NCBI GenBank assembly: GCA_047456315.1
Contig: CP179889.1
Location: 448,776 to 512,775 of the forward strand
Source of the DNA: Candidatus Nealsonbacteria bacterium
Lineage (GTDB): Bacteria > Patescibacteriota > Minisyncoccia > Minisyncoccales > JANBVM01
Reading direction: 5' to 3'
Length of the DNA: 64,000 nt
The translations under genes were made by a program, and so were the position numbers. Below, piece by piece: positions 2,077 through 30,136 of the stretch. Positions within the stretch are counted from its first letter, which is position 1. The number at the start of each line of letters is the position of its first letter. Under the pieces are notes generated by a model. It was not told the DNA's origin and searched no databases. It worked only from the letters and a program-made list of their open reading frames with translations.

Positions 2077-2814
2077 TTAGCGCCTGATTATGGTTCCCAC
2101 AAGGTATTTATCAGATACTCTTGAGAATGTCTCTCCATCTTTTGCACACTGAGAGAGTTCTTCCACATCAATGGTTATTTCTAACTTCCCGCATTTCAAT
2201 GTTACATCATTGATATCAGGTTCTTGCGGAGTAGACCCCCCGGAAACAGTACAAACAATCTGGTCTTTTTTATATCCTTTCAATCCAACAAAAGTGCCAT
2301 CAGCCATATTGTAAAGGTCCTTTTCAAAACCTCTATCTAACAAAAAAGACTCAACGCTGTCATACTGCTCGCTTGATATTCTATTGGCCTCAAAACCATT
2401 TCCTTCTATATCCACTTCTTCTATTTTTGGATCTACTTTAACTACCCATTTAAAATCAACTGGTTGTTCTTCTGAAAAATCTATCCCAGTTTCTTGTTTA
2501 AGGTCTTCAAGAAGATTTGAAATTTCATCCAAAGATACGCATTCACTTCCATCAAAACATTTATCAGGTCCGCAATCGCAAATCTTTACCTGATGACTAT
2601 TATCTGGTGAACAACCACAAGGACCAATAAGGCACAGGTTAGGAAAATCACCAGTTGCTTTACAACACAATGATGTGGAGATTGTTCCTCCAGAGTCTAC
2701 ACAGGCTTGTTCTATTTCTGTTAGCTCTTCGGACATTGATTGATAAAACCAATAACCTAATCCTGCTACAATTCCAATTATTATAAGAATGATTGCAATG
2801 ATTGTTTTAGACAT
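2077..2814 (-). CDS. Membrane-anchored or secreted Cys-rich protein, unknown function
   Basis: 245 aa. N-terminal hydrophobic anchor IIAIILIIIGIVAGLGYWF, then a Cys-dense module (CVDSGG..LCCKATGDFPNLCLIGPCGCSPD..CDCGPDKCFDGSEC). Preceded by an ECF-type promoter. Confidence 0.65.
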   Translation of the reverse strand: MSKTIIAIILIIIGIVAGLGYWFYQSMSEELTEIEQACVDSGGTISTSLCCKATGDFPNLCLIGPCGCSPDNSHQVKICDCGPDKCFDGSECVSLDEISNLLEDLKQETGIDFSEEQPVDFKWVVKVDPKIEEVDIEGNGFEANRISSEQYDSVESFLLDRGFEKDLYNMADGTFVGLKGYKKDQIVCTVSGGSTPQEPDINDVTLKCGKLEITIDVEELSQCAKDGETFSRVSDKYLVGTIIRR

Positions 2815-2856: not shown

Positions 2857-2893
2857 CTACTTAATATAACGATTGAAAGAGAAAAAGGTAACA
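2857..2893 (-). promoter_or_regulatory. ECF-type promoter GTTACC-N15-CGTTAT
   Basis: Minus-strand hexamers at 2887-2892 and 2866-2871, about 51 nt upstream of the start at 2814. Same architecture as three other sites in the window. Confidence 0.55.
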
Positions 2894-2985
2894 CTGTTGT
2901 AGAGTTTTTCAAACTCCTCCAAATTTCCTTTTTTGCATTGCTCAACAATTTCTTGCTCCATTACTGTATCCTACACTATCTTGAA

Positions 2986-3017
2986 GCAAAAAGCAGGGAT
3001 AAGAGCCCTGCTTTTTG
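2986..3017 (-). terminator. Intrinsic terminator after the chagasin-like gene
   Basis: Stem AGCAGGG (2992-2998) / CCCTGCT (3006-3012), flanked by A and T runs. Confidence 0.55.
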
Positions 3018-3022
3018 TAATC

Positions 3023-3589
3023 CTACTTGATTATCACTTTGTAGGTCAGGATTTTAATCGGTTCTCCCACCCAAGATCTCTCGTAAGAAAACCTTATTTC
3101 TACATCTCCTTTTTTCAGAGTAAGGAATTTGAAAAATTCTTGCCCTCCGACGCCAAAGGGAACTTCTATCTCTGACTCTTCTGAGCCTTCAATTCCTACA
3201 ACTCCTTCATCGATTTGATTCTGCACCAATTGTTCTTGAGCCTGATTGCTGTCAATAATGTCTCTTGCTCCATCCGAAGCGCCAGGCGATTGAATTCTCC
3301 CCTTTTCCAAAGACATTGACATTCTTGTATTTTCCTGAAAATCAGGGACATAATTTTTTTCAATCAGTTGAAGATAGTTTTGATCAAACTCTATTGTCCA
3401 CTGATAGCCAGTAGTAAGATTGGCCTCCAAAACTATTTCAAAGTCCTCGCCAACCTCCTTTTCTATTATTTGAATGCCGGCGTCTCTTGTGCTTTCTGTT
3501 GCTGGAGCAACGATATAATGGTTTGCTCCGTAGCTTACACCGACAACAATAAGCAATGAAATAAAGACAGTAATGATTAACTTTAACAT
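3023..3589 (-). CDS. Chagasin-family (I42) cysteine-peptidase inhibitor-like secreted protein
   Basis: 188 aa with a signal/anchor helix. NLTTGYQW matches the chagasin NPTTGYxW motif. C-terminal GVGGQEFFKFLTLKKGDVEIRFSYERSW matches the family's G.G...F.F.....G...I.F.Y.R.W pattern. Confidence 0.7.
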   Translation of the reverse strand: MLKLIITVFISLLIVVGVSYGANHYIVAPATESTRDAGIQIIEKEVGEDFEIVLEANLTTGYQWTIEFDQNYLQLIEKNYVPDFQENTRMSMSLEKGRIQSPGASDGARDIIDSNQAQEQLVQNQIDEGVVGIEGSEESEIEVPFGVGGQEFFKFLTLKKGDVEIRFSYERSWVGEPIKILTYKVIIK

Positions 3590-3629
3590 GTTTTTTTAAT
3601 AATTAATTATATACATCTTAATGACCTTT

Positions 3630-3666
3630 CTACTTAATATTACGATTGAGAGAGAGAAAGGTAACA
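3630..3666 (-). promoter_or_regulatory. ECF-type promoter GTTACC-N15-CGTAAT
   Basis: Hexamers at 3660-3665 and 3639-3644, about 49 nt upstream of the start at 3589. The 37-nt block is near-identical to 2857-2893. Confidence 0.55.
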
Positions 3667-3692
3667 AAAAAACCGCCTTTTTGGCGATTTTT
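3664..3692 (-). terminator. Intrinsic terminator
   Basis: Minus-strand ATCGCC-AAAAA-GGCGGT hairpin followed by a T7 run. Confidence 0.55.
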
Positions 3693-3694
3693 AT

Positions 3695-3712
3695 GCCTCT
3701 CGGTCTCTCGAA
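3695..3712 (-). repeat. 18-nt conserved motif ahead of a terminator, copy A (TTCGAGAGACCGAGAGGC on the minus strand)
   Basis: Plus strand GCCTCTCGGTCTCTCGAA. Related copies at 7824-7841 and 30673-30690, each immediately 5' of a terminator on the minus strand. Confidence 0.6.
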
Positions 3713-28153: not shown

Positions 28154-29422
28154 TTATTCTTTTTCTATTGATGTTACAATATTGCTTCCCAAATCTATGG
28201 TAATCCAGTAATTTTCTCCTGTGCTTTCTTTTTCTAAAACTACAGTAACGGTCTCTATTCTTATTTCTGTCATTGTCTCAGTTTTAGTGATAATTGGTTT
28301 TGACCTGATAATTTCAAGAATCTCATAATCATTATCCTTTAATAAATCTTTAATTCTCTCATCTTTCTCGCCAATATCCTTTAGCATTGCCGCAAACATT
28401 TCTTTTTCAGTACCACTTCCAGGTCCGCTTGATTGACCCTCGCTTATTATTATTCCTTCATCAGGTAGGGATGTCTTAGTTCCATCCGGCTCAAGATAAA
28501 ACTTGGGCTTAATAGGATAAGGATATTCTAATTCGGGTTTTTCAATTCTACCTCCTGTTGAAAATGATACTGCTCCTTCCACTTTACCTGTAGTAAGATT
28601 AACCGTGATTATATCCTGATATTCATTGGACTTGAAAATCACATTGGCTCTTTTATCTTCTTTCAGGTCCGCGGAAGTAACTTCCATTCCTCCGTCAACA
28701 AGATCTTCATTCAGCCGAAGTTTAAGTTTAAGAGGAGGCACTGGCTTGACGATTATTTCTCTCTCTTCTAAATCAGAAATCATCTCCTGAATCTTTGGCT
28801 CGGTTTTGGCAATCTCAATTGCTCTGGCTTCTTCCTCTGCAGTTAAGGGAGAGATATTAATCTGCATTTCTTCAATCAATTCAAGTTTTTCTACTTTCTT
28901 TGCTTTAAGGTCTATTTCAGCAACCGAACCAGAAGATTCTATTATTTCGCCTGTTTTAGGATCTTGATAGACGATGTAAAATTGTCCGGGTCCGCGTATA
29001 CCTAAAGCGCTTGAGTCAGTTGCCTCTTCTATAGAGAGAGCTTTTTCTTCTAAGCCAAAAACAGGGGGCAATTTCTCCTCAGGAAGAGTAAGCAGAACAT
29101 AAGCTTTACCATCCTGTAGTTTTACTTCTTTAATCTCCACTCCGTAATCTTCTATTAATTGTTGAATCTGAGGATCATTTTTAGCGATTTCCATAGCTCT
29201 GGCTATCTGCAGTTTTGGCTGGATTATTGTAAAGCCTACAACTAAAATTAAAGCTAAAGCAACGCCAGCAGGAATTAATCTTTTTGTATAAAACATAATA
29301 GTTTTCTTCTTAAAATACCCAGAGTTAAGCAAGTCCATATTTAACCGATGTTGATGGCTTTGAATTTCAATATTTGGAGTTTTAACTTTCTCTAGTTTTT
29401 TAATTAAATCTTTCTTTTTCAT
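28154..29422 (-). CDS. Anti-sigma-factor-like membrane protein with PepSY-like extracytoplasmic repeats
   Basis: 422 aa. Short cytoplasmic N-terminus, single TM helix (LIPAGVALALILVVGFTII), three repeats of the type A.EIAK..P.IQ..I......TG.(I/V). Lies immediately downstream of the ECF sigma gene. Confidence 0.6.
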   Translation of the reverse strand: MKKKDLIKKLEKVKTPNIEIQSHQHRLNMDLLNSGYFKKKTIMFYTKRLIPAGVALALILVVGFTIIQPKLQIARAMEIAKNDPQIQQLIEDYGVEIKEVKLQDGKAYVLLTLPEEKLPPVFGLEEKALSIEEATDSSALGIRGPGQFYIVYQDPKTGEIIESSGSVAEIDLKAKKVEKLELIEEMQINISPLTAEEEARAIEIAKTEPKIQEMISDLEEREIIVKPVPPLKLKLRLNEDLVDGGMEVTSADLKEDKRANVIFKSNEYQDIITVNLTTGKVEGAVSFSTGGRIEKPELEYPYPIKPKFYLEPDGTKTSLPDEGIIISEGQSSGPGSGTEKEMFAAMLKDIGEKDERIKDLLKDNDYEILEIIRSKPIITKTETMTEIRIETVTVVLEKESTGENYWITIDLGSNIVTSIEKE

Positions 29423-29494: not shown

Positions 29495-29522
29495 ATAACG
29501 CATTAAGTCAAAAAAGGTTGCG
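29495..29522 (-). promoter_or_regulatory. ECF-type promoter GCAACC-N15-CGTTAT
   Basis: Hexamers at 29516-29521 and 29495-29500, 72 nt upstream of the anti-sigma start, directly after the sigma stop codon. Confidence 0.5.
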
Positions 29523-30071
29523 TTAATTTATTAATTTTCTTAATTTTTCTAAACCACGGTGTAATAAAGATTTTATTGTCCCCTCTTTTTTTCCTAAAAT
29601 TTCACCAATTTCTTTAATTTTCTTTTTTTCAAGAAATCTTAATACAATTACTTCCTGATACTTAATAGGAAGCTTAGAAATTTTTTCTTGAAGCATTAAA
29701 AAGTCCTGATGTTTTTTTAATTCTTGCTCAGCTTCAATAATTTCAGTAAAGGGATTTGAAAGCGCAACTGGTTCTGGAATTTTCTCTAAAGAAACTTTAT
29801 ATTTATTTTTCCTAAAGTAATTAGCAATTTCATTATTCACAATTTTATAAAGCCAGGCCGAAAAAGAAATGTTTTTCCAACGGAATTGCCAGAGTTTCTT
29901 TAAGGCCTTAAAAAATGTTTCTGAGGTTATGTCCTGAGCAATCTCTAAATTGGCTGTTCTTTTTAAGGCATAACCAAAAATCCTGGAATAATGCTCATTA
30001 TAAAGCTTAGCAAAAGCCTTCGGGTCTTTTTGGGCTTTTTTGACTAATTCTCTCTCTTTTTCTAAATTCAT
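29523..30071 (-). CDS. RNA polymerase sigma factor, ECF (group 4) subfamily
   Basis: 182 aa. Region 2 (FAKLYNEHYSRIFGYALKRT..AQDITSETF) and region 4 HTH (YQEVIVLRFLEKKKIKEIGEILGKKEGTIKSLLHRGLEKLR). Confidence 0.88.
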   Translation of the reverse strand: MNLEKERELVKKAQKDPKAFAKLYNEHYSRIFGYALKRTANLEIAQDITSETFFKALKKLWQFRWKNISFSAWLYKIVNNEIANYFRKNKYKVSLEKIPEPVALSNPFTEIIEAEQELKKHQDFLMLQEKISKLPIKYQEVIVLRFLEKKKIKEIGEILGKKEGTIKSLLHRGLEKLRKLIN

Positions 30072-30108: not shown

Positions 30109-30136
30109 ATAACGCAGAAAATCCTAAAAAGTTGCA
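30109..30136 (-). promoter_or_regulatory. ECF-type promoter GCAACT-N15-CGTTAT (putative autoregulation)
   Basis: Hexamers at 30130-30135 and 30109-30114, 37 nt upstream of the sigma start. Confidence 0.5.

Follow-up and report, generated by a model that had tools for sequence, protein, structure and literature searches.

In the E. coli operon rpoE-rseABC a sigma-E promoter is located before rpoE, and rseA is preceded by a further promoter that depends on sigma-E. For Bacillus subtilis it is said, going back to Qiu and Helmann in 2001, that the promoters of sigma-W, sigma-X and sigma-M are related and differ by a few bases, such as CGTA against CGAC in the -10 element. For Candidatus Nealsonbacteria and related Parcubacteria we know of no genetics and of almost no described regulation. 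A literature search on ECF with Patescibacteria, ECF with DUF333 and chagasin with sigma factor brought up nothing relevant. In general, ECF sigma factors usually autoregulate, and their promoters are mostly orthogonal and can be predicted with position weight matrices (PWMs) (PMC7826278, PMC3817407).

Here we analyzed a 64,000-nucleotide stretch of a Candidatus Nealsonbacteria genome, referred to as the window. A first-pass annotation had proposed that one ECF-type promoter motif, present four times, connects a single ECF sigma factor with a chagasin-like cysteine-protease inhibitor and a Cys-rich protein encoded far away. The comparison with other genomes favors a different reading, to which we assign a probability of roughly 80%: the four sites would represent two ECF promoter classes, A and B, belonging to two ECF sigma families, ECF1 and ECF2, and ECF2 would since have been deleted here. 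This would correct a plausible but wrong regulon assignment, in which a degenerate consensus had merged two ECF systems.

Four promoter sites in the window and their sequence classes

The pattern GYWACY-N15-CGTWAT matches the window at exactly four places (2866-2892, 3639-3665, 29495-29521 and 30109-30135), all of them on the minus strand and in 5' intergenic DNA. The chance expectation is 0.02 matches and four or more were reached in none of 100 dinucleotide-preserving shuffles; these figures apply to a pattern composed post hoc, whose Y and W positions are exactly those that separate the two motif classes. A search with one mismatch added only one site. At all four sites the motif, the coordinates of its hexamers and the 15-nt spacing agreed with the first-pass annotation, as did the range of 37-72 nt to the start codon: the -10 hexamer precedes the ATG by 51 nt at P_B2, 49 nt at P_B1, 72 nt at P_A2 and 37 nt at P_A1. 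The chagasin, Cys-rich and ECF sigma genes lie downstream as described there, and the fourth gene encodes a 422-aa membrane protein. The two promoters before the supposed target genes, P_B1 and P_B2, are indeed nearly identical: over the stretch TGTTACC to AAGTAGA they have 35 of 38 bases in common, and in the alignment out to the ATG 67 of 84 columns are identical. The ECF-type reading of all four sites is likewise supported at the level of sequence. An Rfam search of the window found tRNAs only, and a sigma-70 promoter scan of the window found nothing beyond shuffle expectation.

Two of the sites (30109-30135 and 29495-29521) follow the class A motif TGCAAC[CT]TTTT-N11-GCGTTAT, which is kept 5' of ECF1 orthologues and of a membrane partner gene in about 20 other genomes. 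P_A1 (TGCAACTTTTTAGGATTTTCTGCGTTAT, 30109-30136, minus strand) is located 37 nt 5' of the start codon of ECF1 (29523-30071, minus strand). ECF1 has 182 aa with the domains Sigma70_r2 (Pfam, 3e-16) and Sigma70_r4_2 (1e-15), and with 101.9 bits for TIGR02937 (cutoff 42.9) it belongs to the ECF superfamily. Its sequence is that of XOB40943.1 of Candidatus Nealsonbacteria (100% identity), and a paralogue, XOB41404, is 91% identical. P_A2 (CGCAACCTTTTTTGACTTAATGCGTTAT, 29495-29522, minus strand) begins 1 nt past the stop codon of ECF1; its distance to the partner gene (28154-29422, minus strand) is 72 nt. Among 24 orthologous loci the P_A1-type motif precedes ECF1 at N16 in 17 and at N17 in one more (L019), and the P_A2-type motif precedes the partner gene in 20; the ECF1 orthologues with class A promoters are 46-81% identical to ECF1. 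At four loci (L003, L004, L007 and L008) the partner gene is displaced from ECF1 and the class A promoter stays with it. Both class A sites show the AAC-N16-CGT arrangement of autoregulatory ECF promoters. At the sigma gene and the gene that follows it, the first-pass annotation is borne out: these are promoters of the autoregulatory type, kept in orthologous loci.

The partner is a single-pass membrane protein of 422 aa, assigned by its synteny with ECF1 and by a separate class A promoter in orthologous loci. It has a short cytoplasmic N-terminus with the conserved sequence M..EDLIKKLEN.KTP... and one transmembrane helix, and it evolves fast (dN/dS 0.51). No match was found in Pfam or NCBIfam, including their anti-sigma domains; from its conserved adjacency to the sigma gene, this topology and the N-terminal motif we regard the protein as a presumptive anti-sigma factor. 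In the proposed mechanism class A would be the autoregulatory promoter of ECF1, one copy driving the sigma gene and the other driving the partner.

The remaining two sites (3639-3665 and 2866-2892) follow the class B motif TGTTACCTTT-N12-CGT[AT]AT, which can also be written TGTTAC[CT]TTT-N12-CGT[AT]. This motif accompanies ECF2, a second ECF family with 32% identity to ECF1. It is found directly 5' of ECF2 in 19 of 21 orthologues from metagenome contigs (47-61% identical), in 17 cases at N16, once at N17 (L087) and once before a small upstream ORF (L100); the two contigs without it end less than 125 nt upstream of ECF2. In other genomes class B is placed directly 5' of its cognate sigma gene, of which the window retains only a stub. 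The -35 element of class B shows TAC instead of AAC, and the -10 regions of P_B1 and P_B2 read TCGT[AT]AT where ECF1-linked sites show GCGTTAT. The region 4 recognition helices differ consistently as well, with GTIKSLLHRG in ECF1 and ANCKMIFSR in ECF2. The best NCBIfam model, the BldN-like TIGR02952, gave 120.4 bits for ECF1 and 129.4 bits for ECF2 against a cutoff of 206.45, and all other NCBIfam models for named ECF groups were likewise below cutoff.

PWMs trained on other genomes only, PWM-A for class A and PWM-B for class B, divide the four sites into two and two; each matrix finds exactly two sites in the window. With PWM-A the class A sites scored 35.2 bits (P_A2) and 35.0 bits (P_A1), and the class B sites scored 14.0 bits (P_B2), inside the shuffle range with its maximum of 16.1, and 0.5 bits (P_B1). 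With PWM-B the class B sites scored 27.8 bits (P_B2) and 25.9 bits (P_B1) against a shuffle maximum of 12.4, and the class A sites -2.0 and 1.6 bits; for both matrices the training-site expression fixes G..AC-N16-C[GA]T, and only the remaining columns are free evidence. In the training sets GCAAC is present in 30 of the 32 ECF1-linked sites of other genomes, GAAAC in two and GTTAC in none; the class B sites show GTTAC in 16 of 16 and GCAAC in none. At the fourth -10 position T is invariant in class A, P_B1 has an A there, and P_B2 reads CGTTAT. Both classes have in common the AC-N16-CGT spacing, a T-rich start of the spacer and an AT-rich -10 tail, so that some cross-recognition between them may occur.

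The chagasin cassette and the ECF2 remnant

The chagasin gene (3023-3589, minus strand) encodes a predicted secreted protein of 188 aa that is assigned to the chagasin family (Inhibitor_I42, PF09394) with an E-value of 2.5e-17 and 63.4 bits against a cutoff of 27.2. Its homologues form only 8 clusters, all on Nealsonbacteria-type contigs; a metagenome scan with the protein found no relatives, and the genome of the window carries the paralogue XOB41191. P_B1 (TGTTACCTTTCTCTCTCTCAATCGTAAT, 3639-3666, minus strand) lies 49 nt 5' of the start codon, behind a terminator-like hairpin with a U-run (3667-3696, minus strand; RNA fold -14.4 kcal/mol, z -5.3), which serves as the end of the purM-like gene upstream and as insulation for P_B1. 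This hairpin forms the left part of a cassette kept in 6 loci, in which the entire stretch of about 100 nt from the terminator to the ATG is conserved beyond the hexamers. The element upstream of P_B1 was tested as a repeat family and is not one. A sigma-70-like TATAAT is located in the leader at 3611-3606, and a second terminator-like hairpin follows the gene (2988-3016, minus strand; -14.6 kcal/mol, z -3.2). Both hairpins were missed by a consensus terminator scan and were identified by computing the RNA folds directly.

The promoter is kept at all six chagasin loci, including the orthologues in L081, L082, L083, L111 and L112, but it is of class B and adjoins ECF2 in relatives. The order there is terminator, P_B, chagasin, ECF2 and a DUF333 membrane protein (L081, L082 and L112), followed in L082 only by the Cys-rich gene, which has a housekeeping-type promoter with an extended -10 element. 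The DUF333 protein shows no known anti-sigma domain in Pfam or NCBIfam and would be the presumptive anti-sigma factor of ECF2. The same hairpin as at 2988-3016 is present between chagasin and ECF2 in relatives; it is strong, and P_B may not be the main promoter of ECF2 there.

In the window, as in a second closed Candidatus Nealsonbacteria genome (L083), ECF2 and the DUF333 gene are deleted. The remnant (2893-2973, minus strand) consists of a sigma-70-like -10 hexamer, TAGGAT, at 2973-2968 and ECF2 codons 1-23 at 2961-2893 (MEQEIVEQCKKGNLEEFEKLYNS); its open frame continues across P_B2 and ends at a TAG at 2859-2857. A tblastn search with the L082 ECF2 detected the stub with an E-value of 1.5e-8, and direct comparison showed 20 of the first 23 residues to be identical. 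The blastn homology of the window to L081 and L082 stops exactly at 2893, and 3' of this junction the promoter and leader of chagasin are found once more. A misassembly at the junction was judged unlikely, since L083, whose closed genome is independent of that of the window, carries the identical stub structure.

This second copy of the promoter is P_B2 (TGTTACCTTTTTCTCTTTCAATCGTTAT, 2866-2893, minus strand), a duplicated P_B1 that is located 51 nt 5' of the start codon of the Cys-rich gene in place of the native promoter of this gene. In the proposed course of events about 1.2 kb, comprising ECF2 from codon 24 on and the DUF333 gene, would have been lost in the lineage of the window, and a copy of P_B of about 40 nt would have taken its place. 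The left junction lies at ECF2 codon 23 with a microhomology of 1 nt, the right junction at an AAAGGTC box common to both leaders (7-nt homology), and the outcome would be a promoter swap before the Cys-rich gene. As a general signal the box AAAGGTC can be dismissed, with 9 matches in the window against 10.4 expected. The near-identity of P_B1 and P_B2 is best read as the result of this recent duplication and promoter swap and not of independent selection. The tract that carries the stub differs at 2 of 660 nt between two genomes whose ECF1 loci show a dS of 0.4-0.9. Either the event or its spread would therefore be recent, with no time for decay.

The Cys-rich gene (2077-2814, minus strand) codes for a membrane protein without a Pfam match. 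Its 3' end is truncated in the window (245 aa compared with 346 aa in L083 and L112), and the homology to L083 stops near position 2100. No class B promoter stands before the homologues in L082, L113 and L114; judged from these upstream regions, the Cys-rich family is not generally under a promoter of this kind.

Possible sigma factors for the class B promoters

In the main reading sigma factors of the ECF2 family would read class B and ECF1 would not, and in relatives the protease inhibitor is the first gene behind an ECF2-type promoter. Of the ECF control postulated for the cysteine-protease inhibitor, the control itself probably holds in relatives; the sigma factor there would be ECF2 and not ECF1. 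The link to a distant sigma factor is not supported, since relatives carry ECF2 between the two target genes and the window has retained only a 23-codon stub of it. Which sigma factor, if any, serves class B after this loss can be read in several ways.

A serious candidate, to which we give slightly less than even odds, is that the class B sites are recently orphaned relics. The Cys-rich gene would then be transcribed from the TAGGAT at 2973-2968, and chagasin from the TATAAT at 3611-3606 or not at all. Both hexamers are present, the only ECF2 seen at this locus was removed by the deletion, clusters at 90% or more identity contain no close copy elsewhere, and the tract with two differences in 660 nt is consistent with a recent loss. 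Neither hexamer, however, forms the canonical extended -10 element (TGnTAnAAT) of the clear housekeeping promoters in these loci, and one would hardly expect a working promoter to give way to a silent one, or such an allele to occur in two lineages. The dN/dS of chagasin (0.13 compared with L083, binomial P 2e-4) also speaks against silence, and together with three intact P_B copies it hints that something still transcribes the gene. As decisive proof of an active P_B without ECF2 this value was rejected: the window and L083 form a recombination mosaic, which weakens the hint, and the divergence may predate the deletion.

Somewhat more doubtful, although still worth considering, is a supply in trans by an ECF2-family sigma factor elsewhere in the 647-kb genome, so that chagasin, the Cys-rich gene and XOB41191 would form a working regulon. 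The motif is kept across orthologues of only 47-61% identity, and a divergent copy could therefore read class B. Several ECFs occur in these genomes, among them the ECF1 paralogue XOB41404 and, in L113, a third ECF. Intact P_B cores are present in the window, L083 and L111, and in L111 a P_B-chagasin module exists without an adjacent ECF2. On the other side, L111 contains no ECF2 within 3-4 kb, and the ECF2 clusters at 90% or more identity cover three other closed genomes and include no member from the 647,540-bp genome of the window or the 675,639-bp genome of L083.

It is unlikely that after the loss of ECF2 and its anti-sigma factor class B was taken over by ECF1, XOB41404 or a divergent ECF, with the allele spread by recombination between diverged co-resident lineages. 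If this were true, a regulon would have been captured through a promoter swap in a minimal episymbiont genome, and the inhibitor and the newly re-promotered Cys-rich surface protein would answer a different signal.

Very unlikely, by our assessment, is the single regulon as first proposed, in which ECF1 (29523-30071) reads all four promoters and controls chagasin and the Cys-rich gene, or its variant in which ECF1 or its paralogue captured class B after the loss of ECF2. The identical spacing and shared pattern suggest it, as do the 14.0 bits of P_B2 with PWM-A, the lack of a detectable close ECF2 copy in the genome of the window, the apparent purifying selection on chagasin and the cross-talk documented among ECF subgroups with similar promoters (PMC3817407). 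This is opposed by the GTTAC in the promoters of both target genes, which is found in 0 of 32 ECF1-linked sites, by the A of P_B1 at an otherwise invariant T, by PWM-A scores of 0.5 bits for P_B1 and below the shuffle maximum of 16.1 for P_B2, and by the different recognition helices of the two families. In addition, class B tracks ECF2 and not ECF1 at every locus examined. A regulon connecting ECF1 with these targets is unsupported because matrices from other genomes split the sites into two and two.

It is highly improbable that the sites are no ECF promoters at all but housekeeping promoters with an incidental likeness to ECF motifs, or sequence conserved as part of a leader or cassette. 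The conservation of the whole stretch of about 100 nt in chagasin cassettes and the overlap of the -10 regions with the sigma-70-like hexamers TAATAT and TATACT might suggest this. However, in distant ECF1 and ECF2 orthologues conservation is limited to the -35 block, the CGT block and the fixed distance of 16 nt between them, with variable spacer sequence; each of the two motifs goes together with one sigma family, and a TGn extended -10 is missing.

Taken together, the reading with two promoter classes provides two sigma/promoter pairs that appear well supported, ECF1 with TGCAACC-N15-GCGTTAT and ECF2 with TGTTACY-N15-CGTW. The position of the inhibitor behind an ECF2-type promoter in relatives is noteworthy in an ectosymbiont that lives on methanogens, and the stub with the promoter swap offers a clean natural experiment on the fate of a regulon after the loss of its sigma factor.

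Comparison with described ECF systems

The biology of these loci is otherwise standard ECF autoregulation. Class A resembles known autoregulated ECF/anti-sigma operons in its AAC-type -35 element, its T-rich stretch and the distance of about 16 nt to CGT, and also in its position directly 5' of the sigma gene, its conservation in orthologues and the adjacent membrane protein. Differences are found in ECF1 and ECF2 themselves, which remain below the cutoffs of named groups, in their partners, which have no known anti-sigma domain, and in class B, which has TAC for the canonical AAC. As in rpoE-rseABC, the sigma gene and the putative anti-sigma gene have separate cognate promoters, P_A1 and P_A2, but the gap that contains P_A2 is intergenic and 100 nt long, and P_A2 moves along when the partner gene is relocated. 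As for the ECF sigma factors of B. subtilis, two ECFs of one lineage use promoters of the same architecture, which two -35 bases and the -10 flank set apart; their putative specificity is deduced here from co-occurrence. The events before the Cys-rich gene resemble promoter capture by short duplication and gene loss, with a segment of about 40 nt copied and the intervening genes deleted, and they differ from it in that the deleted genes are the very sigma/anti-sigma pair that would match the copied promoter.

Two promoter classes among the four sites

The pattern GYWACY-N15-CGTWAT has exactly four matches in the 64-kb window (2866-2892, 3639-3665, 29495-29521 and 30109-30135), all on the minus strand, compared with 0.02 expected from shuffled sequences; allowing one mismatch added just one further site. 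The fourfold occurrence described in the first-pass annotation was thereby reproduced, together with the identical 15-nt spacing and the intergenic position of all sites, with a same-strand start codon 37-72 nt further downstream. The host, a Candidatus Nealsonbacteria member (Patescibacteria/CPR), has a genome of 647,540 bp. In the same order, the genes downstream encode a Cys-rich membrane protein (2077-2814), an Inhibitor_I42/chagasin protein (3023-3589; 63.4 bits), a 422-aa single-pass membrane protein without family match (28154-29422) and the ECF sigma factor ECF1 with regions r2 and r4_2 (29523-30071; TIGR02937, 101.9 bits), so that the identities proposed for the Cys-rich, chagasin and sigma genes stand.

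The four sites divide two and two between classes: class A precedes ECF1 and its membrane protein partner, class B the chagasin (P_B1) and Cys-rich (P_B2) genes. The two free -35 positions read CA in 30 and AA in 2 of 32 ECF1-linked sites, compared with TT in all 16 sites linked to a second sigma family, ECF2, and G directly precedes CGT in 24/32 class A but 0/16 class B sites; as the regular expression used for site collection fixes G..AC-N16-C[GA]T, only the remaining columns are independent evidence. A -10 tail TTAT is nearly invariant in class A only, and the region 4 recognition helix differs consistently (GTIKSLLHRG in ECF1, ANCKMIFSR in ECF2). The Y and W positions of the original pattern are exactly those that discriminate the classes. 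Both strands of the window were scanned with matrices built from sites of other genomes only. The class A matrix gave 35.2 and 35.0 bits for the class A sites (29524, 30138), 14.0 for P_B2 and 0.5 for P_B1 (highest shuffle 16.1), whereas the class B matrix gave -2.0 and 1.6, 27.8 and 25.9 bits, respectively (highest shuffle 12.4). Neither matrix detected further sites above its shuffle maximum on both strands of the 64-kb window.

The earlier proposal of a single regulon, in which ECF1 is linked as a distant sigma to the two secreted-protein genes, is not supported by these scores, and the GTTAC class tracks ECF2. Better supported by the sequence comparisons are two orthogonal ECF systems, of which the second has lost its sigma at the window locus by deletion, with a promoter swap. 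The AAC/CGT signature attributed to all four sites fits class A; in class B, TAC replaces AAC.

Class A promoters and ECF1

Scanning representative genomes with the ECF1 protein yielded 24 orthologous loci (46-81% identical). The motif TGCAAC[CT]TTTT-N11-GC[GA]TTAT precedes ECF1 at 17 of the 24 loci with N16 spacing and at one more with N17, and the class A motif is found before the partner gene, characterized by the conserved N-terminus M..EDLIKKLEN.KTP, at 20 of 24; the motif is thus conserved upstream of both orthologues. At four of these 20 loci other genes are inserted between sigma and partner and the motif is kept, indicating that the promoter travels with the partner gene. Class A shows every defining ECF-promoter feature that was open to testing, and its arrangement represents the classical signature of ECF autoregulation, a promoter conserved upstream of the sigma factor's own operon (PMC7826278, PMC3817407).

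The partner evolves much faster than ECF1 (dN 0.46, dN/dS 0.51 versus dN 0.07, dN/dS 0.17; window 28154-29422 against L084 5648-6916). A 91% identical ECF1 paralogue, XOB41404, is encoded in the same genome outside the window and has a region 4 helix of the ECF1 type.

Class B promoters, ECF2 and the promoter swap

Homologues of the chagasin-like protein were found in no more than eight clusters. At three related loci, L081 (CP179892.1), L082 and L112, the gene carries the same class B promoter as in the window (with TGTCACC as -35 in L112), followed by a hairpin, ECF2 (180 aa, 32% identical to ECF1) and an overlapping gene for a DUF333 membrane protein of 198-204 aa; in L082 alone the Cys-rich gene comes next. 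Used as query against metagenomes, ECF2 returned 21 orthologues (47-61% identical). In 19 of these TGTTAC[CT]TTTT-N11-[TA]CGT[AT] precedes the ECF2 operon, with GT[AG]GAAG at a fixed distance behind it and no adjoining chagasin gene; in the other two contigs, the upstream sequence is shorter than 125 nt. At all loci with enough downstream sequence (10 of 12 inspected), ECF2 is followed by the gene of a membrane protein whose N-terminal motif is conserved, the presumptive anti-sigma factor. Class B is an ordinary ECF-type promoter as well, except for TAC instead of AAC and for the cognate gene missing in the window.

The proteins of the ECF2 family at L081-L112 all end in a hydrophobic tail of 12-15 residues past region 4 (e.g. 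EEIVLLLILLSIYG), which may serve as a membrane tether or belong to an anti-sigma interface. A TAGAAT/TAGGAT -10 hexamer lies only 6 nt before the ECF2 ATG (window 2973-2959; L081/L082 4620-4646; L112 1895-1920) and would give a leaderless mRNA. A third ECF sigma of 179 aa is located close to a Cys-rich paralogue (L113 1-165, CP179892.1), so these relatives carry at least three ECF sigmas in genomes of roughly 0.65 Mb. The DUF333 protein has a C-terminal CGDGIC...CPEDC module resembling that of the Cys-rich protein, and some homologues of the latter (P0175, P0217, P0239, P0245) also bear an Inhibitor_I42 domain, which may point to a functional connection between the secreted proteins concerned.

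In the window, 2961-2893 encodes MEQEIVEQCKKGNLEEFEKLYNS, a stub matching residues 1-23 of the relatives' ECF2 at 20 of 23 positions when compared directly (tblastn E 1.5e-8) and preceded by ECF2's own sigma-70-like -10 hexamer TAGGAT. Homology to L081/L082 extends from upstream of P_B1 across chagasin gene and hairpin and breaks off precisely at 2893 (T of TGTTACC); a duplicate of the chagasin promoter occupies the following stretch of roughly 40 nt, and from the AAAGGTC box on (GGAGTC in the window) the native Cys-rich leader follows. A duplicated P_B has thus taken the place of about 1.2 kb, which held codons 24-180 of ECF2, the DUF333 gene and the native TGGTAGAAT-type promoter of the Cys-rich gene. 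The junctions coincide with homologies of 1 nt and about 7 nt, and a pair of template switches would account for the replacement. The near identity noticed between the two target promoters is real and reflects this duplication. That L083 (CP179890.1), a closed genome assembled independently, has the identical stub junction argues against misassembly. The promoter conserved upstream of chagasin is of class B, at L081, L082 and L112 with ECF2 nearby; since the Cys-rich homologues in L082 (native), L113 and L114 have no class B promoter, the Cys-rich gene became part of the "regulon" by a recent accident in the window lineage.

The Cys-rich protein is full length in L083 (346 aa, as in L112) but has 245 aa in the window, where the gene is truncated at its 3' end (2077-2110), the C-terminal CxxC-rich module is lost and homology stops near 2100. 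An AAAGGTC(G/A)AAAA box 7-8 nt past the -10 occurs in chagasin, ECF1-partner and Cys-rich leaders (window 3629-3623, 29467-29461; also in numerous related contigs), whether the promoter is of ECF type or has an extended -10, and forms one junction of the swap; it is not enriched in the whole window (9 matches, 10.4 expected). A conserved hairpin element of about 40 nt and CTCGGTTCGAGAGACCGAG type (3735-3697) immediately precedes the terminator that lies ahead of P_B1; L082, L083 and L112 have it too, no Rfam family matched it, and it occurs only once within the window.

Window (3712-2100) and L083 (4879-6490) share the cassette terminator-P_B-chagasin-hairpin-stub-P_B-Cys-rich in different surroundings, with purM upstream in the window and Peptidase_S66 in L083. 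The comparison is a recombination mosaic, with 25 mismatches in 3706-3357, 2 in 3356-2697 (stub included) and 23 in 2696-2100. Synonymous divergence is 0.07-0.09 in the cassette versus 0.40 for ECF1 and 0.90 for its partner, so the deletion, or its spread, is recent. Mosaic and low divergence suggest recent recombination between co-resident lineages.

Recognition of class B promoters and comparison with known systems

Among the possible states of class B in this genome, recently orphaned promoters (probability about 0.4) are only slightly ahead, in line with the recent date of the deletion; three closed Nealsonbacteria genomes (653,831, 694,748 and 661,413 bp) are represented in the ECF2 clusters at 90% identity or more, but the genomes of the window and L083 are not. 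Against this, chagasin differs between window and L083 by 10 synonymous and 5 non-synonymous changes (dN/dS 0.13, binomial P 2e-4), which hints at continued expression, although with a recent deletion and a mosaic comparison this signal may predate the deletion. Possible sigma-70-type elements (TAGGAT 2973-2968, TATAAT 3611-3606) lack the extended -10 usually seen in the clear housekeeping promoters at these loci. An unlinked sigma of the ECF2 family reading class B is nearly as probable as orphaned promoters: a 63% identical chagasin paralogue, XOB41191, lies in this genome outside the window, and its closest fetched relative, L111, has an identical P_B with no ECF2 nearby, but the absence of this genome from the same clusters speaks against it. 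Cross-talk of ECF1 at class B is improbable in view of the sub-shuffle scores of P_B1 and P_B2 with the class A matrix and the different recognition helices.

Neither sigma factor reached a named NCBIfam equivalog cutoff (best TIGR02952, 120-129 bits versus 206), no known anti-sigma domain was detected in either partner, including the ECF1 partner first annotated as anti-sigma-like, and literature searches turned up no paper that connects ECFs to Patescibacteria, DUF333 or chagasin. Both classes share the AC-N16-CGT geometry of ordinary ECF-type promoters, and two orthogonal ECF systems, the second with its sigma deleted and a promoter swap, form the better-supported reading in place of the single regulon.
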